Below are positions 8,873 to 29,572 of a stretch of DNA of 64,000 nt, in pieces. The translations under genes and the position numbers were made by a program. The notes under the pieces are model-generated. The model had not been told where the DNA came from. It saw only the letters and a program-made list of their open reading frames with translations, and searched no databases. This DNA is from an uncultured Verrucomicrobiae bacterium (GTDB taxonomy: Bacteria; Verrucomicrobiota; Verrucomicrobiia; Chthoniobacterales; JAATET01), in NCBI GenBank assembly GCA_963719495.1, contig CAVRCI010000008.1:96001-160000 (forward strand). The letters run 5' to 3'. Each line of letters starts with the position of its first letter. Position 1 is the first letter of the stretch.

Positions 8873-8897
8873 AGCGGCGGTCACAGACCGCCGCTAC
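8873..8897 (-). repeat. GTAG-tagged REP hairpin
   Basis: Reverse strand reads GTAGCGGCGGTCTGTGACCGCCGCT; same as the arms at 24345-24432. Confidence 0.8.
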
Positions 8898-10584
8898 ACT
8901 TGGCGGCTGCTCGTTCGCGAGACTTGGTCAGATGTCCTGACTTTTCGAAGGCAAGCGCTTCGCCGAGCGCTTTCAGGGTGATGGGTTTGGGCAGGAAGCC
9001 GGTCATCCCAGCTTCGGCGCAGGCTTCGCGGGCGGTGGTGCTGGCGTCGGCGGTGATGGCGATGATGGGGACGGGCGGGCGTCGTTGATCCGATTCGCTC
9101 GAGCGGATGGCGCGGGTCGCGGCGAGGCCGTCGAGGTCGCGGAGACCGATGTCCATGAGAACGAAGTCCCAGACGGGGCGATCCCGCACGTTGGCGACGG
9201 CTTCGTGGCCGCTTTCCACGAACTCGACCGAATGCCCGAGCTTGCCGAGCATGGCACCGAGGAGTCGCCGATTGATGCGATTGTCCTCGGCTGCGAGGAC
9301 GCGAAGTGAGGGGGTGGGCGCCGCGGGACCGGACTTTTCGGGTTCCGGGGTGGGGGCTGATGTGGCGGGGGCGTAGAGGGTGAACGTGAAGGTGGAGCCG
9401 ACGTTTTTCTCGCTGGTGAAATGGATGGCGCCGCCCATGCGTTCGACGAGGTCGCGGCTGATGGTGAGGCCCAGGCCCGTCCCGCCCGAGCGGCGGGCGA
9501 TGCTGGAATTGGCCTGGGCGAAGGGTTCGAAGAGACGGCGCGCTTCCGCCGGGGTGACGCCTTCGCCGGTGTCGGCGACGCTGAACTCGAGGAGTTCGGG
9601 GGTCGCCCGACGGATGCCGACCTGAATGGTTCCCTTGGAGGTGAACTTCGCGGCGTTGCCGAGCAGGTTGAGCAAAATCTGTCGGAGTCGGAGAGGGTCG
9701 CAGGTGACCCATTGCGGAACGTCGTCCTCGCAGTGACCCCGAATTTCGACGCCGGTTTGGGCGCGGGTGCGCACGGTCGCGACGGCGGACGCGAGGGCCT
9801 TGCGAAGGTTGGTCGGATGGGGGTCGAGCTGGAGTCGGTTGTCGGCGAGCTTGGAGTAGTCGAGGAGCTCGTCGATGAGGTGGAGAAGCGATTGGCTGCT
9901 GGTCTCGAGGACGCCGGCGGATTCCGCGATGGGAACGCCTTCGCCGACGAGTTCGCTCACGCCGACGATGCCGTTGAGGGCGGTGCGGATTTCGTGGCCG
10001 ACGGTGGCCGTGAGGCGGCGTTGGGCCTGGGTGGCGCGTTCGGCGGCCTCGCGGGCGACGGCGAGATCGGCGATGAGGCCGGTGGTCTCGAGGGCGTTGA
10101 TCTCGGACTCGGCGACGGCGGCGAGGTCGCGGACGATGTCGAGGTCGGCGGCGGTGAATTCACGCACCTTGTAATCGAGGATGCAGAGCGATCCGAGGCA
10201 GTGGCCGGTCGGGCTGAAGAGCGGATAGCCGGCGTAGGCGCGAACGCGGGGCGTCGAGAGGACGATGCCCATGTCGGAGGTGCGTTGGTCGTCGGTGGCG
10301 TCGTTGACGACGAGGGGACGTCGGTCATGGACGACGTAGGCGCAGAAGGAGTTGGAGCGCGGGGTCTCGCAGACGTCGAGTCCGAGGTGGGATTTGAACC
10401 ACTGGCGTTCGTGGTCGACGAGGCTCACCAGGGCGGTCGGGGAGTTGGTTGCCGCCATGGCGATGCGCGTGAGGCGATCAAACCGTTCTTCCGGCGGGGT
10501 ATCCAGGATGTTGAGATCTCGTAGAATGCGAAGCCGGTCGGCTTCATCGGCGCGTGTCGGGGCCATCGGCATGGATCCAAACAA
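8881..10584 (-). CDS. GAF-containing hybrid histidine kinase / receiver
   Basis: GAF (LDTPPEERFD), H-box HEIRT, NAAKFT, DTGEG, GTGLGL, REC (EDN, LMD, KP). Confidence 0.9.
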   Translation of the reverse strand: MFGSMPMAPTRADEADRLRILRDLNILDTPPEERFDRLTRIAMAATNSPTALVSLVDHERQWFKSHLGLDVCETPRSNSFCAYVVHDRRPLVVNDATDDQRTSDMGIVLSTPRVRAYAGYPLFSPTGHCLGSLCILDYKVREFTAADLDIVRDLAAVAESEINALETTGLIADLAVAREAAERATQAQRRLTATVGHEIRTALNGIVGVSELVGEGVPIAESAGVLETSSQSLLHLIDELLDYSKLADNRLQLDPHPTNLRKALASAVATVRTRAQTGVEIRGHCEDDVPQWVTCDPLRLRQILLNLLGNAAKFTSKGTIQVGIRRATPELLEFSVADTGEGVTPAEARRLFEPFAQANSSIARRSGGTGLGLTISRDLVERMGGAIHFTSEKNVGSTFTFTLYAPATSAPTPEPEKSGPAAPTPSLRVLAAEDNRINRRLLGAMLGKLGHSVEFVESGHEAVANVRDRPVWDFVLMDIGLRDLDGLAATRAIRSSESDQRRPPVPIIAITADASTTAREACAEAGMTGFLPKPITLKALGEALAFEKSGHLTKSRERAAAKCSGGL

Positions 10585-15495: not shown

Positions 15496-17118
15496 TCAGG
15501 CGGGGGTTAGGGTTGGCTTTTTGGGCTTCTTGGTTTTTCGGACGATGGCGGTGGCGGTGAAGGCGACTTCGAGGGCTACGAAGGAGGCGGCGTATTCGAA
15601 ACCTCCGCTGCCGAAGCCGTAGCTGTGGAGGCCGACTCCGAGGATGAAGTTCACTCCATACCAGGCCATGATGATGGTTTGGAAGGCGAGGATGCTGCCG
15701 ACGGCGAGGCCGAAGCCGGCCCAGCGGCCGGCGATGCGGCCGTGGAGGATGAAGAGGTAGGCGAGCAGCGCGACGAGGGCCCAGGTTTCCTTCGGATCCC
15801 AATCCCAGAAGCGGCCCCAGCTGTAGTTGGCCCAAACGCCGCCGAGGATGGTGCCGACGGCGAGGAGGAAGACGCCGATCTGGAGGGTGCGGTAGATGTA
15901 GTTGTAGAGGGCGGGGCTGGGTTTGGTGCCGAGGATGACCTTGCCGAGGGCGATGTGGGCGACGCCGAGGGCGAGGGCGAAGGCGGCGTAGCTGAGCGTG
16001 ATGATGAGGACGTGGGTGGCGAGCCAGAAGTTGCTCTGGAGGACGGCGGTGAGGGGGTGGATGCCGGGATCGAGGGCGAGCGGTTGGAGGTCGGCGAGGA
16101 CGAGGGAGAGGACGGCGACGGGGATGGCTCCGAGGAGGAAGTAGCGGCTCCGGTAAATGGCTTCGAAGACGAGGGCGAAGAGGACGGTGCCGAAGGCGAC
16201 CCAGATGATCGACTCGTACATGTTGGTCACCGGGGGACGGCCGGCGATGAGGATGCGGCCGACGAAGCCGGCGAGTTGGAAGGCGAAGCCGACGGCGGCG
16301 AGGCTCCAGCCGATGGCGTAGCCGGGGCGGCGGGACCAGACGGAGGTGACGGCGAGGGTGAGGCCGGCGAGGAGGTAAAGGATCCAGGCCCAGCGGAAGG
16401 GGTGGACGTTTTGGTAGGTGGTCTCGAGGGCGATCTTCCATGCAGCGGGCTGGAATTGCGGGGCCTGTTTGGCGAGTTCGAGACGGAGGGTGGTGGCCGC
16501 GGTGTCGAAAGCGGCCTGGTCGCCGGCGAGGTAGGCGGTGCGGAGGTTGGCGAAGAGGGGGTCGGTGGGGTCGAGGGTGCGCCAGGCGGTGAGGTCGCCG
16601 GCGGGGTTGGCGACGATGCGGTAGAGGCTCCCGTTGCGGAGGGCTTCGAATTCGGCGAGGCGGAGGCCGATGGTCTCCATCTTTTTGTCGATGCCGGTGA
16701 GTTTCCCGCCTTCGGTGGTGCGTTTGGCGTTCTCGGCGTCCTGGAGGAGTTGGACGAAGGCGGCGTTGCCGGCGAGTTCTTCGTAGGAGTAGAGCGTGCG
16801 GGTGTCTTCGAGGTCGGCGGCTCGCTTGACGTCGATGGAGTCGATGAGGATGAGGGGCTGGGTGTTCCAGGCGTTCGGCTGGAACCAGAGATCGGTGATG
16901 ACGTCGAGGGCGGGGCGGCGGGCGTCGTCGGTTTTAAGCGTGGCGCGACCGGAGAGGCTGAGGAGGCTCTCCTGGGCGAAGACGAGGTAGGGTTTTTTGC
17001 GGCCGCTTTCCTGGACGGGGATGGATTCGAGCTGGGTGAGGTCGAGGGCGCGGGTGGCGGGGGCGGCCGTGGTGAGGAGCGCGAGGGCGAGGGTGAGAGG
17101 TTTGATGAACGAGTTCAT
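15496..17118 (-). CDS. ccsA: Cytochrome c biogenesis protein CcsA/ResC (system II)
   Basis: WWD motif WANYSWGRFWDWDPKETW, GLHSYG, WLATHV; ATG at 17118 overlaps resB stop. Confidence 0.92.
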   Translation of the reverse strand: MNSFIKPLTLALALLTTAAPATRALDLTQLESIPVQESGRKKPYLVFAQESLLSLSGRATLKTDDARRPALDVITDLWFQPNAWNTQPLILIDSIDVKRAADLEDTRTLYSYEELAGNAAFVQLLQDAENAKRTTEGGKLTGIDKKMETIGLRLAEFEALRNGSLYRIVANPAGDLTAWRTLDPTDPLFANLRTAYLAGDQAAFDTAATTLRLELAKQAPQFQPAAWKIALETTYQNVHPFRWAWILYLLAGLTLAVTSVWSRRPGYAIGWSLAAVGFAFQLAGFVGRILIAGRPPVTNMYESIIWVAFGTVLFALVFEAIYRSRYFLLGAIPVAVLSLVLADLQPLALDPGIHPLTAVLQSNFWLATHVLIITLSYAAFALALGVAHIALGKVILGTKPSPALYNYIYRTLQIGVFLLAVGTILGGVWANYSWGRFWDWDPKETWALVALLAYLFILHGRIAGRWAGFGLAVGSILAFQTIIMAWYGVNFILGVGLHSYGFGSGGFEYAASFVALEVAFTATAIVRKTKKPKKPTLTPA

Positions 17119-18980
17119 TTGGGTTGGTTCGGCGATTGCAAATCGCCGCTCCTTGAAAGGGTTGGCTCGCTGGCGCTTTGCCTTTTTGGTTTGAGGTAGA
17201 ATTGGATGAAGATGCCGGCGCAGATGGCCAGAGAGCCGAACCATTTGAAGAGCCAGCCGGGATCGTAGAGGACCTGGAGGGTGGTTTCGCCGAGGTCCTT
17301 GGGGTTCCATTCGGCTTGGGAAAATTTGTAGTTGATGCCGGTGAGGTTGGCGAGGAAGCCGCCGGGCCAGCTGGCGGGTTGGTTCATCTGGGCGACGGCG
17401 GTCTTGGTCGCTCCGGATTCTTTTTCGGTGAATTTGACGGTGGAGATGTAATTGGCGGGGGTTTCGGTGCCTTCGTAGCGGGGGACTTCGAAGCTCTCGA
17501 GGCCGATGGTGAACGGGGCGGGGCGGAGTTCGAGGCCGTAGCCGAGGCGGACGACGGTGCGGTCGAGGGCGAGGGTGGTGAGGGCTCCGGACGCAATCCA
17601 TTTTGCCGGGCCGGTGCGGCCGTCGGGGGCCTGGAGGGCGGCGTGGAAACCGGGGATCCCCTTGACCTCCGGATCGCCGGGGACGGGATCGGTGAGGATC
17701 ACGGCGCGGGGGAGGAATTCGGTGACTTCGGCGGTCCAATCGGCCCAGTCGGGGGTGATGACGTCGCCGACTTGGGCGGTGCCGGTGCCGGTGGCGATCT
17801 CGTTGCGGACGGATTGCCAATCGACTCCGCCGTCGGGATTGGGGGCGAACTCGAGGGCGAGGCCGCCCTGGGCGGGATCGGACGGTGCGGCGTCGGACGC
17901 CGCGGCGGGGCCGGTGATGCGAACGAGGACGGCGGGATTGTTCGGCAGGGGGGACGCGGTGGTCGGGCGGCCGTTTTCGAGTTTGAAATCGGGCCAGTAG
18001 CTGTCGACGCGGACGGTGGTGGGTCCGGCTTCGATGGCGGTGCCGACGACCTCGGCGCGGCGGTAGGTCGCGGAGCCGACGGTGAGGGTCTGGCCGTCGG
18101 CGGCGAGGGTGACGGGGAGTCCGGTGGTGCCGTCGTCGGCGGTGACGACGGGAGCGTATTTGGCGAAGATCATGCGGGTCTCTTCGATGGTCTTGGGCGT
18201 GCGGTCGGGCAGGGACGGGAGGAAGGCGACGCGGGCCATGCCGAAGAAATCCTTCTCGATGCCGCCGTCGGATTGGAGGGCGAAGGGGAGATCGAGGTGC
18301 TGGCCGGCGGTGTCGCTGTGGAAGTGAAAGCTCACGCCGGGAAGGGCGGCGGGGTCGTCGGATGCGGCGAGGCGTTCCTGGTCGAGGAGGTTGGGGCTGA
18401 AGTCGTCGGCGACGAGTCGGTAGTCGGTGTCGGGGAGCGGCAGGGCGTCGGGGCGGTCCTGCGAGGGCAGGGCGGCTTCGGCGTCGAAATCGATGAGGTA
18501 GAGAGCGCCGTCGCGGGGGCTTTCGACCTGGAGGACGCTGCGGCTGGTGGTGATGCGGGAGACGGGGGCTTTCTCGGTGTGGAGGGTGACGTTGCCTTCG
18601 AAGCCGAGTTTCGTGCCGATGACGGCTCCGACGAGCAGGATGATGATGCCGTAGTGGGTGACGATGAACCCGGTGTGGCGGCGCTGCCAGGGCCAGCGGC
18701 TGATGGTGACGGCGAGGAGATTCACGCAGAGGACGCCGAGCCAGATGATGAACCACGGGGCCTTGTAGATGTAGGCGGCGGCGATTTTGGAATTGAAGGC
18801 GCTCTCGTAGAACGTGGCCACGCCGATGGCGATGGCGATGGTGGCCAGGAGGGTGAGGGCGAGCTTGAGGGATGCTAGGACGTGAATGATCTGCCAAGTG
18901 GTCGAACGCTCACGGCGGGCGGCGACGATGCGGCGGTGCGCGTCGCGGGTGAGCGGGGCTTTGGGTGCGGTGGTGGTCAT
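17115..18980 (-). CDS. resB: ResB/CcsB-like cytochrome c biogenesis protein
   Basis: LASLKLA, IYKAPWF, GFIVTHYG, large soluble domain, DPG before last TM; coupled to ccsA. Confidence 0.82.
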   Translation of the reverse strand: MTTTAPKAPLTRDAHRRIVAARRERSTTWQIIHVLASLKLALTLLATIAIAIGVATFYESAFNSKIAAAYIYKAPWFIIWLGVLCVNLLAVTISRWPWQRRHTGFIVTHYGIIILLVGAVIGTKLGFEGNVTLHTEKAPVSRITTSRSVLQVESPRDGALYLIDFDAEAALPSQDRPDALPLPDTDYRLVADDFSPNLLDQERLAASDDPAALPGVSFHFHSDTAGQHLDLPFALQSDGGIEKDFFGMARVAFLPSLPDRTPKTIEETRMIFAKYAPVVTADDGTTGLPVTLAADGQTLTVGSATYRRAEVVGTAIEAGPTTVRVDSYWPDFKLENGRPTTASPLPNNPAVLVRITGPAAASDAAPSDPAQGGLALEFAPNPDGGVDWQSVRNEIATGTGTAQVGDVITPDWADWTAEVTEFLPRAVILTDPVPGDPEVKGIPGFHAALQAPDGRTGPAKWIASGALTTLALDRTVVRLGYGLELRPAPFTIGLESFEVPRYEGTETPANYISTVKFTEKESGATKTAVAQMNQPASWPGGFLANLTGINYKFSQAEWNPKDLGETTLQVLYDPGWLFKWFGSLAICAGIFIQFYLKPKRQSASEPTLSRSGDLQSPNQPK

Positions 18981-19005
18981 TCGCGGGTGTTGCGGTGCGT
19001 TAAGG

Positions 19006-19022
19006 TATTAGCGTTGCTAATA
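19006..19022. promoter_or_regulatory. AT-rich inverted-repeat operator candidate
   Basis: TATTAGC-GTT-GCTAATA just upstream of the resB start. Confidence 0.5.
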
Positions 19023-19116
19023 TATGCAACTCCCGGGGATGGGGGGTGAGGGAGGTGGCGGGCGACGGGTTGCTTGGTTTGGACACCTTGGGGGATGATC
19101 GCCTCGGTGGAGGACT

Positions 19117-19218
19117 AGCCAGAGATGCTTCGCTTCGCTGCCAGTGACATCGGTCTGCGAGGCGCGGAATCCAGGGTGAAGGCCACGGCTCGGCGGGAGC
19201 CTCGCCCTCCGGATGCCC
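19117..19218 (-). repeat. Composite element (TGTCA-type arm plus GGAGGGCGAGGCTCC hairpin)
   Basis: Similar along its length to 49801-49892. Confidence 0.75.
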
Positions 19219-19290
19219 GATGGGGGCGGCTGGCGCCGCCCCTATCGGTTTTCGGTTCGGTTTTCGGTTTGTAAGGCGGCCGTTTGGGCC

Positions 19291-19668
19291 CTAGATCGCT
19301 TCGGTGGCGGTGATGCGGTGGGGGAGGGGGGTGCCTTGGAGGAGTTCCTGGCCGGCGGTTTGCATGATCTCGAGGCCGGGGAGATGCAGCCATTCGACTT
19401 GGATGTGGCTGCCTTGCGCCTGCTTGCGCTCGAGGATGCGGAGGAGTTCGCGCAGGCCCATGGTCGAGCCGGTGTTCAGGTAGTAAAGGAGGAGGCGGAG
19501 CTCGAGGGTCGAAGTTTCGCCAAGGGAGGCTTCCAACCACGCGCCGATCCGGTCGAAAAATTCGGTCGGGTTCTCGGGGTAGGACTCGCCGCGAAGCGTG
19601 AGCGTCGACGACTCCGCGTCGAACGACACACTCGGCGTGGTCTCGGATTCTGGAATGTTCAGGTCCAT
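19291..19668 (-). CDS. siaC: SiaC / DUF1987 family regulatory phosphoprotein
   Basis: TPSVSFD, LRGESYPEN..EFF, YYLNTGS, VEW signature. Confidence 0.88.
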   Translation of the reverse strand: MDLNIPESETTPSVSFDAESSTLTLRGESYPENPTEFFDRIGAWLEASLGETSTLELRLLLYYLNTGSTMGLRELLRILERKQAQGSHIQVEWLHLPGLEIMQTAGQELLQGTPLPHRITATEAI

Positions 19669-19680
19669 GGCGTTCTCGGG

Positions 19681-20193
19681 TTAAGCACAATCGATGCTCA
19701 GGTTGATCGAAAGTGAGGATCGGCCCGAGCTGGCGGGCGAAATTTCGATCTCGGGCGGGCTGGCGGCCTTGCGGTGAAGGTCGATGAGGCCAAGGCCCGA
19801 GCGAGCGGCGGGAGGATCGGTCTGGTGTAAACGGGCGAGGTAGAGGCGGTTGAGTTCGCCGGTCGGAATGGCGCGGATCGACGCCAGCCGATCCCGGAGG
19901 GCCGGGACGTCGGCGTTGTCGATGAGATTGGTCGTGCGAAGGACGAAACCGGTCGCCGTGCGGTTGACCGTGATGCGACCGATGCCGACGTTTTCTTCGG
20001 GGCTGCGTTCGGCGGAGTGGCGGGCGATATTCTGAGCGAGTTCGACGAAAGCTCCAAACAGGAGAATCCGACCGCCGACGGAGAGTTGGGTGCGGGCTCG
20101 GAGGGTCCGGCCGCAATCGGTGCTGATGGTTGAGGTGATGGGACCTTCGGCGAGAAAGAGCATGAGATCGTGCGGGCGGAGACCGGTTATCAT
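19681..20193 (-). CDS. siaB: SiaB family protein kinase
   Basis: FVELAQNIARHS, LNRLY, SGLGLIDL; C-terminal part of the long ORF 19681..24240, with ATG at 20193 overlapping the upstream stop. Confidence 0.82.
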   Translation of the reverse strand: MITGLRPHDLMLFLAEGPITSTISTDCGRTLRARTQLSVGGRILLFGAFVELAQNIARHSAERSPEENVGIGRITVNRTATGFVLRTTNLIDNADVPALRDRLASIRAIPTGELNRLYLARLHQTDPPAARSGLGLIDLHRKAASPPEIEISPASSGRSSLSINLSIDCA

Positions 20194-22382
20194 GGAACGT
20201 GGGCGGCGGGCGTTTCGGTCGGATTGGAATCGGGAAAGCGGATGCCAAGCAGCGTGACGTCGTCGCGTTGGGCGGCACCGCCGCGAAATTCCGAGAAGGC
20301 GTCGATGAGGGATCGGCGCTGGGAGGCAAGGGTTTCGGCGTGGAGTCCGGTGAGCAAATCGGTGAGGCGGCGGTGGTCGAAGACCTGACGAAGGTGGTTG
20401 GGCTGCTGGACGAGGCCGTCGGATTGCAGGTAGATGGCGAGGCCGGGTAAAATGGGCAGCGTGTGATTGGCGAATTCGATGGTGGGAGGTTCGAGGGGGC
20501 CGCCGCCGAGTCCGTGGGGGTCGCCGGGGATGACGCCGGTGAGGGCCTCGCCGTCGCCGGGGCGGACCCACCAGAGCGGGCGGTGAGCTCCGGCGAACAC
20601 GATGGCACCGGGATCGAATCGCACGATGGCGGCCTCCATTCCGTCGCGATTGGTCGCGCCATCGTCGCCTTCCTGGCCGAGGATCGCCCGGACGCGACCG
20701 TGCATCTCGGAGAGGATGGCCGCCGGGTCGCGCACGCCCTTCTCGACGACGATGTGCTCGAGCAGGAGGTGACCAATCATGGACATGAACGCCCCGGGCA
20801 CGCCGTGCCCGGTGCAGTCGACGACGGCGCAGAAGCTGACGTCGGCGGCGCGGTGGCACCAATAGAAATCGCCGGAGACGAGATCGCGGGATTGGTAGAT
20901 GAGAAAATGATCGCCGACGGCGTCCTGCAGCTGGGCCGGGGTGGGGAGGAGAGCCTGCTGGATGCGGCGGGCGTATTGGAGGCTGCTGAAGATCTTCTGG
21001 TTGGCCGCCTGACTCTCGTCGCGGGCGATTCGCAGGCGTCGGGTGATGTTTTCCTGAAACTCCCGGTCGTCGATGACCTTGTCGACGACGCGGTTGTATT
21101 CCGCGGCGATCTGGCCGACTTCCGAGTAGGGGTCGATCCGCAGGCGGCTGGTGAATTCGCCGCTTTCGCTGTGGCGCGCCATGTCGCGGATGAGATCGGT
21201 GATTTCGGTGTTGGCGCCGTGTTCGGAGACGTTGAGTCCGATCTGCTCGGCCTCGGCGTGGATTCGGAGGGGATGAACGCGATTCACGAGCGAGAGCAGC
21301 AGCCAGCCGCCGCCGAAGGCCCAGACGAAGAAGACGAGCGTCCCGAGCGCCTGGATGCCGGTCTGGGCGAGCGGATCGAGGCCGGTGCCGAGGATGGCGG
21401 CGTCGCCGAAGAGGCCGACGGCCAGCGTGCCCCAGACGCCGGGGATCGCGTGCGCGGCGGCGGCTCCGACGACGTCGTCGATGCGCAGGCGTTCGAACCA
21501 GGCAATGGCCGCGTAGCTGAGGAGGCCGCCGACGGCACCGACGGCGAGGGCCTCGCCGGTGGTGACCACGTCGCAGTTTGCGGTGATCGCAACCAGGCCG
21601 CCGATGCAGCCGTTGAGGGTGGCCGGGAGCTGCGGGAGGCCGCGTTTCGCCCACACGGCGGCGAGCGCGGCCAGGCAGCCCGCTGCCCCGGCGATGACGG
21701 TGTTCACGATGATGAGGGGGACGGCGTCGTTGAAGGCGAGGGTGCTGCCGCCGTTGAAGCCGATCCAACCGACGAAGAGAATGATCACGCCGACGGTCGA
21801 GAAAACGAGGCTGTGCGGACTGACGAGGGGGGTCTTGGAATCGAAGCGGCCCGTGCGCGGGCCAAGAATGATCACCGCGGCGAGGGCGACCCAGCCGCCG
21901 ACGCTGTGCACGACGGTGGAGCCCGCGAAGTCGCGGAAGCCGAGGTCGCGCAGCCAGCCGTCGGGGTTCCACGCCCAACCGCCGCCGATCGGGTAGAGGA
22001 CGCCGGAGATGACGATGGTGACGACGATGTAGGAGGCGAAGCTCATCCGCTCGGCCACGGCTCCGGAGACGATGGTGGCCGCGGTGGCGCAGAACATGAC
22101 CTGAAAAATGAGAAGCATCAGGGTGTCGGTTCCGAGGTCCGCCCCGGCGAAGAATTCGGTGGTCCCGAACCAGCCGGAGGGCGAGGCCCCGAACATGATC
22201 GCGAAGCCGAAGGCCCAGAAGAGGACCGTGGCGACGCAGAAATCGATGAGGTTCTTGATCGCGACGTTGACGGAATTCTTCGAGCGCACGAGGCCCGCTT
22301 CGAGCATGCAGAACCCGATCTGCATCGACATCACGAGCGCCGCGCTGGTGAGGATCCAAAGGTGGTCGATGCGGTCGGGCAC
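20190..22382 (-). CDS. Ammonium transporter (Amt)-HAMP-PP2C/SpoIIE phosphatase fusion (SiaA-like output)
   Basis: Amt motifs GFCMLEAG..RSKN, FQVMF, SGAVAER, DFAGSTVVH, GWIGFNGGS, DD....AH; PP2C motifs VSGDFYW, DCTGHGVPGAFMS, SDG, RDDVT. Confidence 0.93.
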   Translation of the reverse strand: MPDRIDHLWILTSAALVMSMQIGFCMLEAGLVRSKNSVNVAIKNLIDFCVATVLFWAFGFAIMFGASPSGWFGTTEFFAGADLGTDTLMLLIFQVMFCATAATIVSGAVAERMSFASYIVVTIVISGVLYPIGGGWAWNPDGWLRDLGFRDFAGSTVVHSVGGWVALAAVIILGPRTGRFDSKTPLVSPHSLVFSTVGVIILFVGWIGFNGGSTLAFNDAVPLIIVNTVIAGAAGCLAALAAVWAKRGLPQLPATLNGCIGGLVAITANCDVVTTGEALAVGAVGGLLSYAAIAWFERLRIDDVVGAAAAHAIPGVWGTLAVGLFGDAAILGTGLDPLAQTGIQALGTLVFFVWAFGGGWLLLSLVNRVHPLRIHAEAEQIGLNVSEHGANTEITDLIRDMARHSESGEFTSRLRIDPYSEVGQIAAEYNRVVDKVIDDREFQENITRRLRIARDESQAANQKIFSSLQYARRIQQALLPTPAQLQDAVGDHFLIYQSRDLVSGDFYWCHRAADVSFCAVVDCTGHGVPGAFMSMIGHLLLEHIVVEKGVRDPAAILSEMHGRVRAILGQEGDDGATNRDGMEAAIVRFDPGAIVFAGAHRPLWWVRPGDGEALTGVIPGDPHGLGGGPLEPPTIEFANHTLPILPGLAIYLQSDGLVQQPNHLRQVFDHRRLTDLLTGLHAETLASQRRSLIDAFSEFRGGAAQRDDVTLLGIRFPDSNPTETPAAHVP

Positions 22383-22412
22383 GGCGTGGGATGAGGCAGG
22401 ATTCGTGCCCGA

Positions 22413-24308
22413 TTATTCCGCGGGTCGATCCTGGTCGACGCGGGGCGTGGGCGGAGGACCGGTGCGCCCGGGGGCGGCTCCTTGGTGAATGGACGCGAGA
22501 GTTTTCACGAGGGCGGGGCGGCGGATGGGTTTGGTGAGGATGTCGTCCATGCCCGCTTCGAGGTAGGCGCCGCTCTGCTCCCGCAGGGCGTTGGCGGTGA
22601 GGGCGACGATGGGGAGGTGGTCGGTGGGACTGGCGAGTTGGCGATCGCGTTCGAGCGATCGGAGCTGGCGGGTGGCTTCGGGGCCGTTCATGACGGGCAT
22701 TTCGATGTCCATCAGAACGAGGTCGAAGGGGTCGGTGCGGCAGACGGCGACGGCTTCGGCTCCGTTGCGGGCGGTGTGGCAGGCGCAGCCGAGCTTTTCC
22801 AGGAGGAGGACGACGAGGCGGGAATTGAGAAGATTGTCTTCGACGACGAGGACGCGGAGTCCGTCGAAATCCGTTCGGGTCGCGGGGCCCGTCGGGGGCT
22901 CGGCGGCGGCCGGGGTGCCGGGCTGAACGTCGGAGTCGAGTCGGGAGCGCGTCGTGACGGTCACGGTCATCGTGGTGCCCGCGCCGACCTGGCTGCGCAC
23001 GGCGATGTCGCCGCCCATTTTTTCGCAAATGCGCTGCGCGATCGCGAGGCCCAGTCCGACCCCGCCGTGGCGCTCGGCGTCGGAGCTGCCGGCCTGGCGG
23101 AAGGCTTCGAAGAGGCCGTCCAGCTTCGCGGCGGGGATTCCCACGCCGGTATCCTCGACGCGGAATTCCCAGGTGGTGCGGCCCGGGTCGGCGGCGGGGC
23201 CGGCCGAGACGCTGAGGGTCACGCTGCCCTCTTCGGTGAACTTGATCGCGTTCTCGACGATGTTCTGCAGGACCTGGGAAAGCCGGGTGCGGTCGGCGTG
23301 GATGATGGTGGGCGCAGTGGGGTCGACGTGGTAGATGAAGGCGACGTTCTTGGCGTCGGCGCGGACCTGGAGGATACGGGCGAGGTCGCGAAGCCAGACG
23401 GCGATCGGGTAGGACAGCTCGTGAAGTTCGAGCTCGCCGGATTCGACGCGGGAAAGGTCGAGGATTTCGTTGATGAGGGAGAGGAGGTTTTCGCCCGAGG
23501 TGCGGATCGCGGAGAGGTAGCCGCGTTGGTCGGCGGTGAGGTCGGTGGTGCCGAGGAGGTCGGCGAATCCGAGGACGGCGTTCATCGGCGTGCGGATGTC
23601 GTGGCTCATCATGGCGAGGAACTCGCTCTTGGCCCGGTCGGCCCGCTCGGCGCGTTCGCGTTGTTCGCGGAGTTCGGCGGCGGCGAGTTTTTGCTCGGTG
23701 ATGTCGATGACGAAGCCGTGCCAGAGGGTGCCGCCGTCGGGCAGGCGTTCGATGCGGGCGTGGGCGGATCGCCAGACCGTGCCGGCCTTCGGCAGGGTCA
23801 CCCGGTAATCCTCGAACCACGGGGTGAGGTCGCGGAAGGACGTGACGAGACTGCGCCAGATGCGGGCCCGGTCGTCCTCGTGCACGAGGTCGAGAATGAG
23901 CGAGCCGTTGGCGCGGGCTTGTTCCGGGGTGAGTTCGTAGATCGTGCGGATCGCCTCGCTGGAATGCAGGACGGACGTGCGACCGCTCGGGTATTGGCGG
24001 AACTGGTAGAGCATCCCGGGGAGGTCGCGCGTGAGGCGGTGAAAGAGCTCGAGGCCAGCGGGCTCCTGGCGACGGTTCGTTTCCACCCGGATGTGCAGGA
24101 CGGTGATGGTAATTCCGACGACGAAGGAACCGATGGTCGCGAGCGTCCAGGGAAGCCAATCGAATGCCCGGTCGGGCGACGCGAGCGTGTAACCCCAGAG
24201 GGTAAAAAGGACGAGCGCTCCGGCAAGACCGAAGGCGCAACTCCCGAGAAACGCCCTCAGCGCCGAGGGGCGGGGGGGTTCTTTGGAATTATCGAGAGTG
24301 CTCTTCAT
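22413..24308 (-). CDS. Membrane-anchored PAS hybrid histidine kinase / receiver
   Basis: Two TMs, PAS (VHEDD...DITE), SHDIRTPMN, NAIKFT, GLGLAI, REC (EDN, LMDIEMP, KP). Confidence 0.9.
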   Translation of the reverse strand: MKSTLDNSKEPPRPSALRAFLGSCAFGLAGALVLFTLWGYTLASPDRAFDWLPWTLATIGSFVVGITITVLHIRVETNRRQEPAGLELFHRLTRDLPGMLYQFRQYPSGRTSVLHSSEAIRTIYELTPEQARANGSLILDLVHEDDRARIWRSLVTSFRDLTPWFEDYRVTLPKAGTVWRSAHARIERLPDGGTLWHGFVIDITEQKLAAAELREQRERAERADRAKSEFLAMMSHDIRTPMNAVLGFADLLGTTDLTADQRGYLSAIRTSGENLLSLINEILDLSRVESGELELHELSYPIAVWLRDLARILQVRADAKNVAFIYHVDPTAPTIIHADRTRLSQVLQNIVENAIKFTEEGSVTLSVSAGPAADPGRTTWEFRVEDTGVGIPAAKLDGLFEAFRQAGSSDAERHGGVGLGLAIAQRICEKMGGDIAVRSQVGAGTTMTVTVTTRSRLDSDVQPGTPAAAEPPTGPATRTDFDGLRVLVVEDNLLNSRLVVLLLEKLGCACHTARNGAEAVAVCRTDPFDLVLMDIEMPVMNGPEATRQLRSLERDRQLASPTDHLPIVALTANALREQSGAYLEAGMDDILTKPIRRPALVKTLASIHQGAAPGRTGPPPTPRVDQDRPAE

Positions 24309-24344
24309 GCCATCTTTCAAAAATAAACCGACAACTCGCAAATC

Positions 24345-24432
24345 GTAGCGGCGGTCTGTGACCGCCGGAGATCTCGCGACCCGGAAGTTGACGCTGCTCA
24401 GCCCGACGGCGGCGGTCACAGACCGCCGCTAC
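24345..24432. repeat. Inverted GTAG-REP doublet (REPIN-like)
   Basis: GTAGCGGCGGTCTGTGACCGCCG ... CGGCGGTCACAGACCGCCGCTAC. Confidence 0.85.
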
Positions 24433-24570
24433 AGCAATGGTCGGGTCGATCGTGGGATTCGGGATCATGCAAGCTACAGGTCTCCCTGCCGGGCGGCCCG
24501 GTCAATGGGTCTCCCTCTTACAATCGTCCCCGCGCCCCGTTGTGGCTGGAGTGGACCCGTCCATGAGTCG

Positions 24571-25659
24571 CTAGCGAACCTGGACGAGCGTTCCTTTCTG
24601 AATTTTCTGCGTGAGGAAGTAGGCGTCCCAGTTGGCGAGGCGGATGCAGCCGCTGCTTTGGTTGCGGCCAATTTGGTCGGGCGAATTCGTGCCGTGGATG
24701 CCGACGCTTTTGCGGTTGATGCCCATCCAGACGATGCCGACGTAGTTGTTGGGGCCGGGCGGGATGTTGAAGGCGTTGTCGCTGCGGGTGCCGTCTTTCA
24801 GGACGGATTTGTCGTAGCGGAAGTAGGGCATGAGGATGTTGGACGTAATCTTCCAATCGCCGACGGGCACCGGGACGCGGTCGGAGCCGGGGGTGCAGGG
24901 GAAGGAGGCGATGATTCTGTCGTTCTCGTAGAGCTCGATAAGGCGGGGTTCGCGGAGAATGACGAGGCGGCGATTTTCGATCTGCGAGTCTTGAGTTTCG
25001 ACTGGGGTGGCGGTGGGAGCCGGGGTGGGTTCGGTGGATGCCAGAGGGTCGGCGGGTTCGGGCGGCGGCGTGGCCGCGGCGGCGAGCTCGGCAGCCTCCT
25101 TTTTGGCTTTGGCCTCGGCTTTGCGTTGGTCGTCGAGGTCGACGACCATTTGCATCGAGAATTCGTCGACGGTCGGAACGCGGAAGGTGGTGCCGGCGAC
25201 GGGGTTGGTGACGGTCGGGTTGATCTCGCGGAGGTAGTCGAGGTCGGAGTGGAACTTCTCGGCGACGAGTTCCCACGGGTCGGCATACATCATGCCATCG
25301 AGCTTTTCCTGCTCGGCGGGCGACGAGGCCTGGCGGCCGATCCACTGCAGATCGTCTTCGGTGAGGACGTAATCGCGGAACGGCTCGGCGACGCTGGAGA
25401 GGTCGAGGCGCTGACCGGGTGGGAGGTCGTTGGCGACGTTGTAACGGTCGGCGGCGGCCTGGGTGAATTCGCCACCGAAGCCGTCGAGTTTGCCGGGGCG
25501 GAATCCGGCCTGGTCGAGGACGATCTGGACCTTGAGGAGCTCGATGCGCTGCGGGCTGTCGTAGGGTTCCTTCTCGAGGCGGCCAATGGAGGCGGCGGGC
25601 TGGGCGAAGGCGGACGCGGCGGTGAGGAGCGCGGCGAGGAGAAGGATGAGGCGGGTCAT
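24571..25659 (-). CDS. L,D-transpeptidase (YkuD family), exported
   Basis: Signal peptide; PGPNN.VG, GIHGT, SSGCIRL. Confidence 0.88.
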   Translation of the reverse strand: MTRLILLLAALLTAASAFAQPAASIGRLEKEPYDSPQRIELLKVQIVLDQAGFRPGKLDGFGGEFTQAAADRYNVANDLPPGQRLDLSSVAEPFRDYVLTEDDLQWIGRQASSPAEQEKLDGMMYADPWELVAEKFHSDLDYLREINPTVTNPVAGTTFRVPTVDEFSMQMVVDLDDQRKAEAKAKKEAAELAAAATPPPEPADPLASTEPTPAPTATPVETQDSQIENRRLVILREPRLIELYENDRIIASFPCTPGSDRVPVPVGDWKITSNILMPYFRYDKSVLKDGTRSDNAFNIPPGPNNYVGIVWMGINRKSVGIHGTNSPDQIGRNQSSGCIRLANWDAYFLTQKIQKGTLVQVR

Positions 25660-28285: not shown

Positions 28286-29572
28286 TCAGCCGATTTGGGT
28301 TGGTGATTGGCTGGAAGCCAATTCCACGGGCTCTACGAAGAACATTCGGGCGTCGGATTTGCCTTTTATGGGGATGAGGCCGCGGTCGGTGGCGGTGACG
28401 TGATCGCGGGCGGCGGCCAGGAATGCCGCGGAGACGTTGATGCGGGCGGATTCGCCTTCGCTTTCGAAACGGGCGGCGGTGTTGACGGTGTCGCCCCAGA
28501 CGTCGAAGGCGAACTTGCGGTTGCCGACGACGCCGGCGACCAGGGGGCCGCGGTGGATGCCGACGCGGACGTCCCAGTAGCCGAGTCCGGCGGCGGTTTT
28601 TTCCCGTTTGCGGTGGGCGATGAAGTCGCGGATTTCGAGGGCGACGCGGAGGATGCGGCCGGCGGGGTCGGGGGTGGTCTCACCCATGCCGGAGAGGCAG
28701 AGGTAGGCGTCGCCGATGGTCTTCAATTTTTCGACGTCGTGGCGGTCGGTGATGCGGTCGAATTCGACGAAGCAGACGTTGAGTTCGTCGAGGAGTTCGC
28801 CGGCGGTGAGGCCTTCGGCGATGGCGGTGAAGCCGCTGAAGTCGGCGATGAGGACGTTGACGTCGTCGAGGTGGCGGGCGGCGACGCGGCCGTGCGTTTT
28901 CAGTTCCTCGGCGACGTCGTCGGGGAGGATGTTGCGCAGGAGGGCGTCGGAGCGCTCCTTTTCCTCGGCGAGGTCGCGTTGACTTTCGATGAGTTCCTCT
29001 TTCAGGCGGATGGATTCCTGCTGGAGTTCGAGAGTGTCGTGGAGGCCGAGCTGCTGCTCGACGAGGCCGCCGAAGCCGCGGAGGAAGGCGATCTGGTGGG
29101 GGTCGAGGGTGCGGGGTTGGGTGTCGAGGACGCAGAGGGTGCCGACGTTCACGCCGGCTTCGAGGGCGAGGGGCATCCCGGCGTAGAAGCGGGCGTGGGG
29201 GTTGCCGGTCACGAGCGGACTGTGGGCGAATCGGTTGTCGAGGCGGAGGTCCGGCACGACGAGGGGGTCGTTTTGGAGGATGGCGTGGCCGCAGAACGAG
29301 ATGTCGCGGGGGGTCTCGTCGAGGTCGATGCCGTGCTTGGATTTGAACCACTGGCGGTTCACGTCGACCATGGAGATGTAGGCGATGGGGACGTCGAAAA
29401 CGCGGGCGGCGAGGGCGGTGATCTGGTCGAAACGGTCCTCGGGCGGCGTGTCGAGGATGCGGAGATGGCGGAGGGCGCGGAGGCGGGCGTCTTCGTTGGC
29501 GGGCTGGGCCAGGCAGGAGACGCGGGCGGCTTGCGGGGAGGTTGCGGGTGGGGGCTGGAGAGGACGAACCAC
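28286..29572 (-). CDS. GAF + class III adenylate/guanylate cyclase
   Basis: GAF; LLRNILP, ADFSGFT, KLKTIGDAY, FDVWGDTVNTAAR; start estimated. Confidence 0.9.
   Translation of the reverse strand: MVRPLQPPPATSPQAARVSCLAQPANEDARLRALRHLRILDTPPEDRFDQITALAARVFDVPIAYISMVDVNRQWFKSKHGIDLDETPRDISFCGHAILQNDPLVVPDLRLDNRFAHSPLVTGNPHARFYAGMPLALEAGVNVGTLCVLDTQPRTLDPHQIAFLRGFGGLVEQQLGLHDTLELQQESIRLKEELIESQRDLAEEKERSDALLRNILPDDVAEELKTHGRVAARHLDDVNVLIADFSGFTAIAEGLTAGELLDELNVCFVEFDRITDRHDVEKLKTIGDAYLCLSGMGETTPDPAGRILRVALEIRDFIAHRKREKTAAGLGYWDVRVGIHRGPLVAGVVGNRKFAFDVWGDTVNTAARFESEGESARINVSAAFLAAARDHVTATDRGLIPIKGKSDARMFFVEPVELASSQSPTQIG

Follow-up and report, generated by a model that had tools for sequence, protein, structure and literature searches.

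A cassette of three intact genes on the minus strand (22382-19291) of the window, the 64-kb stretch of contig C8 of an uncultured Verrucomicrobiae bacterium analysed here, encodes an ammonium transporter-type (Amt) domain joined through a HAMP-like linker to a PP2C phosphatase, followed by relatives of the kinase SiaB and the phosphoprotein SiaC (Table 1). Our preferred reading, to which we give a probability of about 0.65, is that the cassette constitutes a partner switch of the SiaABCD type with an ammonium receptor in place of the usual sensor. The anatomy of such a switch, i.e. a receptor-type Amt, a HAMP linker, a SiaA-type phosphatase, SiaB and SiaC, with their catalytic and phospho-acceptor residues, is evident in the predicted proteins. 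In Pseudomonas, SiaB phosphorylates and SiaA dephosphorylates the SiaC site, and SiaC must be unphosphorylated to bind and activate the diguanylate cyclase SiaD (PMC7278518; PMC8457831, partial text). Since the sensor and SiaD differ, the cassette is to be regarded as a system that would work like SiaABCD with an ammonium-receptor input, and not as SiaABCD proper.

Table 1. Coordinates of the cassette, its domains, the upstream kinase gene and the second copy
Feature	Position	Strand	Remarks
Amt-HAMP-PP2C receptor-phosphatase gene	20190..22382	-	730 aa, GTG start
SiaB-family threonine kinase	19681..20193	-	170 aa; ATGA overlap with upstream stop
SiaC-family phosphoprotein	19291..19668	-	125 aa; 12-nt gap after SiaB gene
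Amt domain, aa 8-391	21210..22361	-	PF00909; twin His, Phe gate, N1/N2 ligands
HAMP-like helix-loop-helix, aa 393-440, into long signalling helix (to aa 478)	20949..21206	-	structure model, hhalign
SiaA-type PP2C domain, aa 479-716	20235..20948	-	PDB 6k4e E 7e-41, Foldseek TMt 0.90
TM-PAS-HisKA-HATPase-REC hybrid kinase	22413..24308	-	631 aa; 30 nt upstream of Amt gene
Second cassette	G000:C6 14134-17354 (L012:9135-12355)		SiaB fused to receptor-phosphatase, own siaC

Candidate receptor, phosphatase, kinase and phosphoprotein

Profile searches recovered the domains that a preliminary description of this locus had named from its sequence: Pfam finds Ammonium_transp (aa 8-391, E 3.6e-114) and SpoIIE (aa 519-716, E 7e-18) in the 730-aa protein, and the two downstream open reading frames (ORFs) match SiaB and SiaC, through DUF6272 (170-aa protein, E 4.6e-23) and SiaC (PF09345; 125-aa protein, E 3.4e-26), respectively. 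The NCBIfam model SiaB_fam_kinase (NF038262) gives 88.2 bits on the kinase, narrowly above its cut-off of 85, and the SiaA, SiaB and SiaC equivalog models match as well (E 2e-54, 8e-17 and 2e-21), all below their own cut-offs. As first described, siaB overlaps the upstream stop (ATGA at 20193) and is hidden as the in-frame tail of a spurious 1519-aa GC shadow ORF (24240-19681), with siaC following at the spacing then given. An assembly artefact or a frameshift as the source of the split between phosphatase and kinase genes was ruled out, the sister genome G382 having the same gene order and ATGA overlap. A protein search, of which the best 120 of 7995 clusters were examined, also speaks against such an artefact and shows the Amt-PP2C fusion itself to be genuine: the first 64 clusters are full-length Amt plus SiaA-type PP2C proteins (39-100% identity), 57 of them stopping after PP2C and 7 being fused to SiaB. 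By source name, most belong to Chthoniobacterales, Opitutaceae and Puniceicoccales, and one to Pseudoalteromonas. Contig pieces bridging the PP2C/SiaB junction were not seen among the matches listed.

The Amt domain keeps the residues of a receptor. The twin His and the Phe gate, both pointed out at the outset, are H159/H311 and F97/F209; W138 and S213 are also present, the ligands of the N1 and N2 sites are Q21, E28, N44, D47, T103 and S106, and F24, K43, Y118 and N257 stand as equivalents of F25, K44, Y119 and N269. The strict ammonium-receptor signature (QX6EX15NX2DF/TX54-60TX2S/T), as defined in PMC11152129 (partial text), occurs at aa 21-106, and all ten receptor positions are kept. The closest solved relatives are two proven receptors, Sd-Amt1 (8qj3, E 1e-113), which according to the same text binds NH4+ rather than transporting it, and Ks-Amt5 (6eu6, E 9e-86); Af-Amt1 is matched at E 3e-50. 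Elsewhere in the genome, the N1/N2 signature is found in the paralogue on contig C6 too, whereas the third Amt, on C2 beside a P-II gene, lacks it (His for Gln, Ile for Asp, Phe for Tyr). Among 68 aligned Amt-SpoIIE homologues, the pattern is present in its strict form in 54 and in its relaxed form in 63. As a candidate receptor, the window Amt would bind NH4+ without transporting it and would make the output of the protein dependent on NH4+.

Pfam does not call HAMP in the window protein, but profile-profile comparison (hhalign) of the linker with the HAMP of SiaA-like proteins gives a probability of 91.5% (E 8.5e-7), which bears out the linker type first proposed. The linker matches the HAMP regions of 22 out of 32 SiaA-like proteins, with a median of 12.4 bits versus at most 1.6 for reversed sequences (both HAMP comparison sets were cut by a shared motif), and it aligns with that of Sd-Amt1. 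A structure model of the 730-aa protein (pLDDT 86.9, pTM 0.58) predicts a short helix (393-407), a loop and a 58-residue helix (421-478) between Amt and PP2C. For the PP2C domain the sole solved match is SiaA (PDB 6k4e), and the Asp motifs are intact, as had been stated: D505, D522, G525, D655, G656 and D707 correspond to SiaA D457, D474, G477, D600, G601 and D653 (residues taken from bioRxiv 10.1101/674879, partial text), so that 6 of 6 are kept. The SiaA model NF038263 scores 185 bits over aa 399-716, under its whole-protein cut-off of 700, and matches at model positions 342-657 only, the N-terminal sensor region of SiaA being replaced by Amt.

Compared with E61 of SiaB and with family conservation alone, the kinase retains E51 (the equivalent of E61), N55 and GLGLID, and, in an alignment of 14 kinases, is unchanged in each of the 11 invariant columns (E51 and 10 others). 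The PDB matches of the window SiaB and SiaC are the corresponding chains of 6kko, and the phosphosite recognized earlier in SiaC is the target threonine T66 (19471-19473), equivalent to SiaC T68. By analogy with Pseudomonas, SiaB would phosphorylate T66 and the modification would control client binding.

In the second copy of the cassette, the region C6 14251-16965 encodes one 904-aa chain, Amt-HAMP-PP2C-SiaB, followed by siaC, and the PAS hybrid kinase that precedes the window cassette is found in front of this one too, as a frameshifted copy. In an LG+G4 tree of 18 rows, the two split proteins of this genus share a clade with six fused ones (support 100/100). A single clade of all fused rows is rejected (p-AU 3e-45), which implies at least two fusion or fission events; a clade of the six family ones is not (p 0.09). 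A stand-alone Hpt gene lies ~2.5 kb downstream of the C6 cassette.

Conserved neighbourhood, fourth gene and proposed circuit

The cassette is rare yet recurrent in Verrucomicrobia-type genomes (19 loci). A linker-PP2C query finds matches in 9 of 351 genomes of its own order and in 10 of 401 genomes of a second order, 6 of which are Amt-linked, and a narrow-pattern genome scan yielded 5 loci, with L114 left out as a duplicate; L117 was discarded as a 12-residue chance match. siaB and siaC are each present in 17 of the 19 Amt-linked loci, the misses falling at contig ends, while SiaB, SiaC or the stalk described below is found in the flanks of none of 80 other Amt loci (from a metagenome scan with Amt-only patterns, among the matches listed, and used as control alone). 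This conserved neighbourhood, together with the N1/N2 signature, supports the early proposal that ammonium may be the input to a SiaC partner switch. Two loci, L127 and L128, have the altered order siaC, stalk-kinase, Amt-PP2C, then contig end.

Where enough DNA is available, 13 of 17 loci carry a fourth gene, whose product, ~325 aa long and devoid of a sensor domain, has a helical stalk of 100 residues joined to HisKA and HATPase_c. The stalk motif, K-x-T-x-[VIL]-[SG]-D-x-x-Q, matches the SiaC-binding motif of SiaD (K77, V78, S82, D83 and Q86, residues taken from PMC8457831, partial text). Of 14 stalks, 5 hit the SiaD model with E values of 10 or less, the lowest being 2.7e-4, and the first member does so at model positions 47-94. 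A single stalk sequence does not find SiaD in the PDB. A 2:2 complex model of the SiaC of one relative (L107) and its stalk-DHp scores 0.90, versus 0.48 for the best of 3 controls; of solved complexes 116 of 157 reach the mark for this score, and of mismatched pairs 2 of 215. At least 97% of contacts are common to the runs, the partner pLDDT is 92, and T67 of SiaC is placed on stalk residues S65, D66 and Q69. As a like complex has been solved (7e6g), we take this as likeness rather than binding. One four-gene version is encoded next to a protein to which NCBI gives Rariglobus hedericola as source.

With the stalk profile, 842 clusters are matched at an E of 0.001 or lower. The 99 that were scanned (ranks 2-100 of 150 listed) comprise 47 histidine kinases, 18 GGDEF proteins, 4 adenylate cyclases, 4 SpoIIE proteins, 3 protein kinases, 3 others and 20 with none, a mix that is biased because the profile was built from kinases. 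That histidine kinases outnumber GGDEF proteins among these matches suggests that SiaC is a general adaptor, and one cluster, P0174, is a natural fusion of stalk, kinase and SiaC. In the scans of P0149-P0247, the stalk itself has no Pfam family and heads kinases, GGDEFs, adenylate cyclases, PP2Cs and Hanks kinases. A stalk-histidine kinase also closes the Sia operons of like gene order at L129, L130, L131 and L132, where the sensor is a different one (e.g. dCache-HAMP); L131 carries a SiaB-SiaC fusion.

From Sd-Amt1 and SiaABCD, we infer the following course for ammonium gating, its sign and the control of the kinase. NH4+ would pass the twin His into the N1/N2 pocket, upon which the HAMP domains would pair and the dimeric PP2C would change its activity. 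By analogy with Sd-Amt1, ammonium most likely switches PP2C on rather than off, the opposite sign being roughly half as probable; the response of Ks-Amt5 is biphasic (PMC5764959, partial text). The balance of PP2C versus SiaB would then set the phosphorylation of T66. In the relatives, judging from the neighbourhood and the complex model, unphosphorylated SiaC would clamp the SiaD-like coiled-coil stalk, which runs straight into the DHp helix of the kinase. Since the clamped stalk would be that of a cytoplasmic histidine kinase, the ammonium signal would go, in this family, to a two-component pathway rather than to cyclic di-GMP. A broader proposition, which we hold to be evenly poised between right and wrong, is that of a P-II-independent nitrogen signal running from an Amt receptor-phosphatase through Thr-phosphorylated SiaC to a sensor-less histidine kinase switched by stalk clamping, i.e. 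Ser/Thr partner switching into a His phosphorelay, with the stalk as a portable SiaC-docking module on kinases, cyclases and phosphatases, and with some members bearing both opposing enzymes on one receptor.

SiaABCD of Pseudomonas aeruginosa (PDB 6k4e, 6kko, 6k4f, 7e6g; PMC7278518; PMC8457831 and bioRxiv 10.1101/674879, both partial text) has the same PP2C-kinase-phosphoprotein order and shares with the cassette the SiaA-type phosphatase, the SiaB kinase, the target threonine of SiaC and, through the fourth gene of the relatives, the SiaC-binding stalk motif. It differs in its sensor, in that the equivalog cut-offs are missed here, in the fusion of SiaB to the receptor-phosphatase of the paralogue, and in the fourth gene, which in the relatives is a histidine kinase and not a GGDEF protein and was not found in this genome. 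With Sd-Amt1 (Amt-HAMP-diguanylate cyclase, 8qj3/8qj4) and Ks-Amt5 (Amt-histidine kinase, 6eu6), the window protein has in common the N1/N2 signature, the twin His, the Phe gate and the exit Asn, with the former also the HAMP linker, and, as for receptors, there is a separate amt-glnK pair elsewhere in the genome; where these have a fused cyclase or kinase as output, it has a Ser/Thr phosphatase that would act via a diffusible phosphoprotein. If true, ammonium receptors would thereby gain a third class of output. Amt fusions are reportedly listed in a review by Tremblay and Hallenbeck (2009).

The preliminary description knew of no characterized example of the combination. The Amt-phosphatase fusion itself has been published: SAR11 Amt-GI5 (Amt-HAMP-like-phosphatase, PMC11796062, partial text) has the same domain order, likened here by description and not by sequence, and is a proposed ammonium sensor. 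No partner is named in that partial text, whereas here a SiaA-type phosphatase adjoins its kinase and substrate. In the literature surveyed, outside most subscription papers, no paper links Amt to SiaB/SiaC, or a histidine kinase to SiaC; in PMC11152129, the portion of supplementary text available leaves SpoIIE, PP2C and phosphatase unmentioned, and the domain organisations in its Fig. 7B may include such fusions. The signal activating SiaA is called unknown in PMC7278518. With a candidate ligand that is small and defined, a SiaA-type phosphatase would thus make ligand control of a Sia switch directly testable in vitro. The stalk-kinase gene of the relatives, the SiaB-fused second copy and the stalk-less genus with its diverging SiaC go beyond the preliminary description.

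Output in this genus and rival explanations

Several observations weigh against the proposed circuit. When the stalk profile is compared with the PDB, SiaD (7e6g) comes fifth (E 0.064), behind vinculin. The complex score may reflect memory of the solved SiaC-SiaD structure, and the model used the L107 pair, not the window SiaC. Among the loci listed, none showed a response regulator next to the stalk-kinase. In the window PP2C, Q666 aligns with SiaA F612, part of a loop modelled as docking SiaC (bioRxiv 10.1101/674879, partial text), and Q659 with D604. The N1/N2 signature is shared by 39 of the 80 control loci, where the profiles used show no domain fused to Amt, and the locus counts overstate independence, since the loci are related. 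As to the output, two stalk profiles run over 56,578 six-frame frames and all profile-found signalling frames gave nothing in this genome that could pass for a stalk protein (best E 2.4-2.5; the client-search profile recovered 17 fourth genes at E < 1e-6), and no stalk gene turned up in any of the six genomes of the genus (this one and 5 congeners). A membrane coiled-coil protein on C14 with a look-alike stretch (E 2.5) was set aside as chance. SiaD is absent from the cassette, and the sole GGDEF protein of the genome is an unlinked REC-GGDEF-EAL on C2, without a stalk. All four stalk-less loci lie in this genus, each behind the PAS hybrid kinase.

One explanation, unlikely in our view but to be taken seriously, is that the cassette of this genus is a remnant whose client gene has been lost, SiaC being cycled by kinase and phosphatase to no effect while the genes are being deleted. 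Besides the missing stalk gene, it would account for the sister genome G288, in which the cassette is gone and the upstream kinase is directly joined to resB, and for G374 (L135:7285-7815), where the 3.1-kb cassette is reduced to a ~530-bp patchwork of Amt, HAMP, PP2C and SiaC pieces, joined, as judged by eye, at short repeats, with several internal deletions in one locus. The frame break in siaB of G382 fits as well, but it may be a sequencing error, the C6 kinase of the present genome and its mutS (C6 8342-10809, split in a way that hints at indel errors in the assembly) being likewise frameshifted. Moreover, this genome retains two intact copies, its catalytic residues are all kept, and the four stalk-less loci represent a single lineage. 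The ratio of nonsynonymous to synonymous substitution rates (dN/dS), obtained by simple codon counting with the upstream kinase left out, and with a high dS that is saturated for G678/G731, is 0.10-0.36 in both stalk-less orthologue pairs; between the window and G382 it is 0.10 for Amt, 0.15 for the linker, 0.21 for PP2C, 0.30 for the SiaB piece and 0.21 for SiaC, two flanking genes giving 0.19-0.20. Purifying selection still acts on the three-gene core. SiaC, on the other hand, gives a dN(SiaC)/dN(Amt) of 2.8 and 2.3 in the two stalk-less pairs versus 0.8-1.4 in six stalk-bearing ones, and the net charge of its helix 3 is -1/-2 in 4 of 4 stalk-less loci versus -3 to -9 in the other 16. In the window SiaC, M70 replaces a Lys that is kept in 18 of 20 aligned SiaCs and that touches the stalk in the complex model. 

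With dN/dS low, the rate of SiaC raised and this Lys changed, the core genes would seem to be kept while the client face of SiaC drifts. The absence of stalk genes, the divergence of SiaC and the two sisters without the cassette suggest that the local circuit may be lapsing; between this and a client of SiaC that has escaped recognition, the odds in this genus are about even.

Another possibility, which we consider distinctly improbable, is that the Amt mainly transports ammonium or senses another cue (membrane state, methylamine, pH), the phosphatase not being gated by NH4+. Some signature-bearing Amts still transport (PMC11152129, partial text), membrane perturbation reportedly elicits a response from SiaA (PMC12834913, partial text), and the carriers have no common nitrogen context: nifH is present in 4 of 15 and nrfA in 0 of 17 genomes, counts that come without a background rate and leave a link to nitrogen fixation or nitrate ammonification unsupported. 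However, the genome has a separate amt-glnK pair, none of the ten receptor positions has changed, and in the stalk-bearing pairs few parts are as conserved as the HAMP linker (dN/dS 0.01-0.10, five pairs with a value).

That the upstream PAS hybrid kinase took over from the stalk-kinase as the SiaC output in this genus is less probable still, for although all four stalk-less loci, the duplicated copy among them, have it in front of the cassette, and the window has it close by, this kinase lacks a stalk motif (stalk score -2.1), remains intact in G288 and G374 despite the loss of the cassette, stands beside a P-type ATPase gene and resB in two genomes without a SiaC match, and is frameshifted in its C6 copy. 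It is probably co-transcribed with the Amt gene. It belongs to the resB/ccsA neighbourhood and, as it persists where the cassette is gone, is context rather than a demonstrated part of the proposed ammonium-fed switch.

Surroundings of the cassette

There is no P-II gene in the window, in agreement with the initial remark that glnK is not adjacent, and the three P-II matches of the genome sit on C1, C2 and C4. No sigma-70-type promoter was found in 18800-24800. A 14-pair hairpin lies at 19217-19248, 43 nt past the siaC stop, with a T-run on the plus strand; look-alikes of this stretch are present in other contigs of run X2. Further downstream of siaC, 15496-18980 holds resB-like and ccsA-like cytochrome c assembly genes, and in two family members the upstream PAS kinase is followed by a P-type ATPase gene and resB-like/ccsA-like genes instead. 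The window also encodes a GAF hybrid histidine kinase (8881-10584) and a GAF adenylate/guanylate cyclase (28286-29500), and more kinase, response-regulator and PP2C genes occupy C8 84-97 kb, just left of the window.

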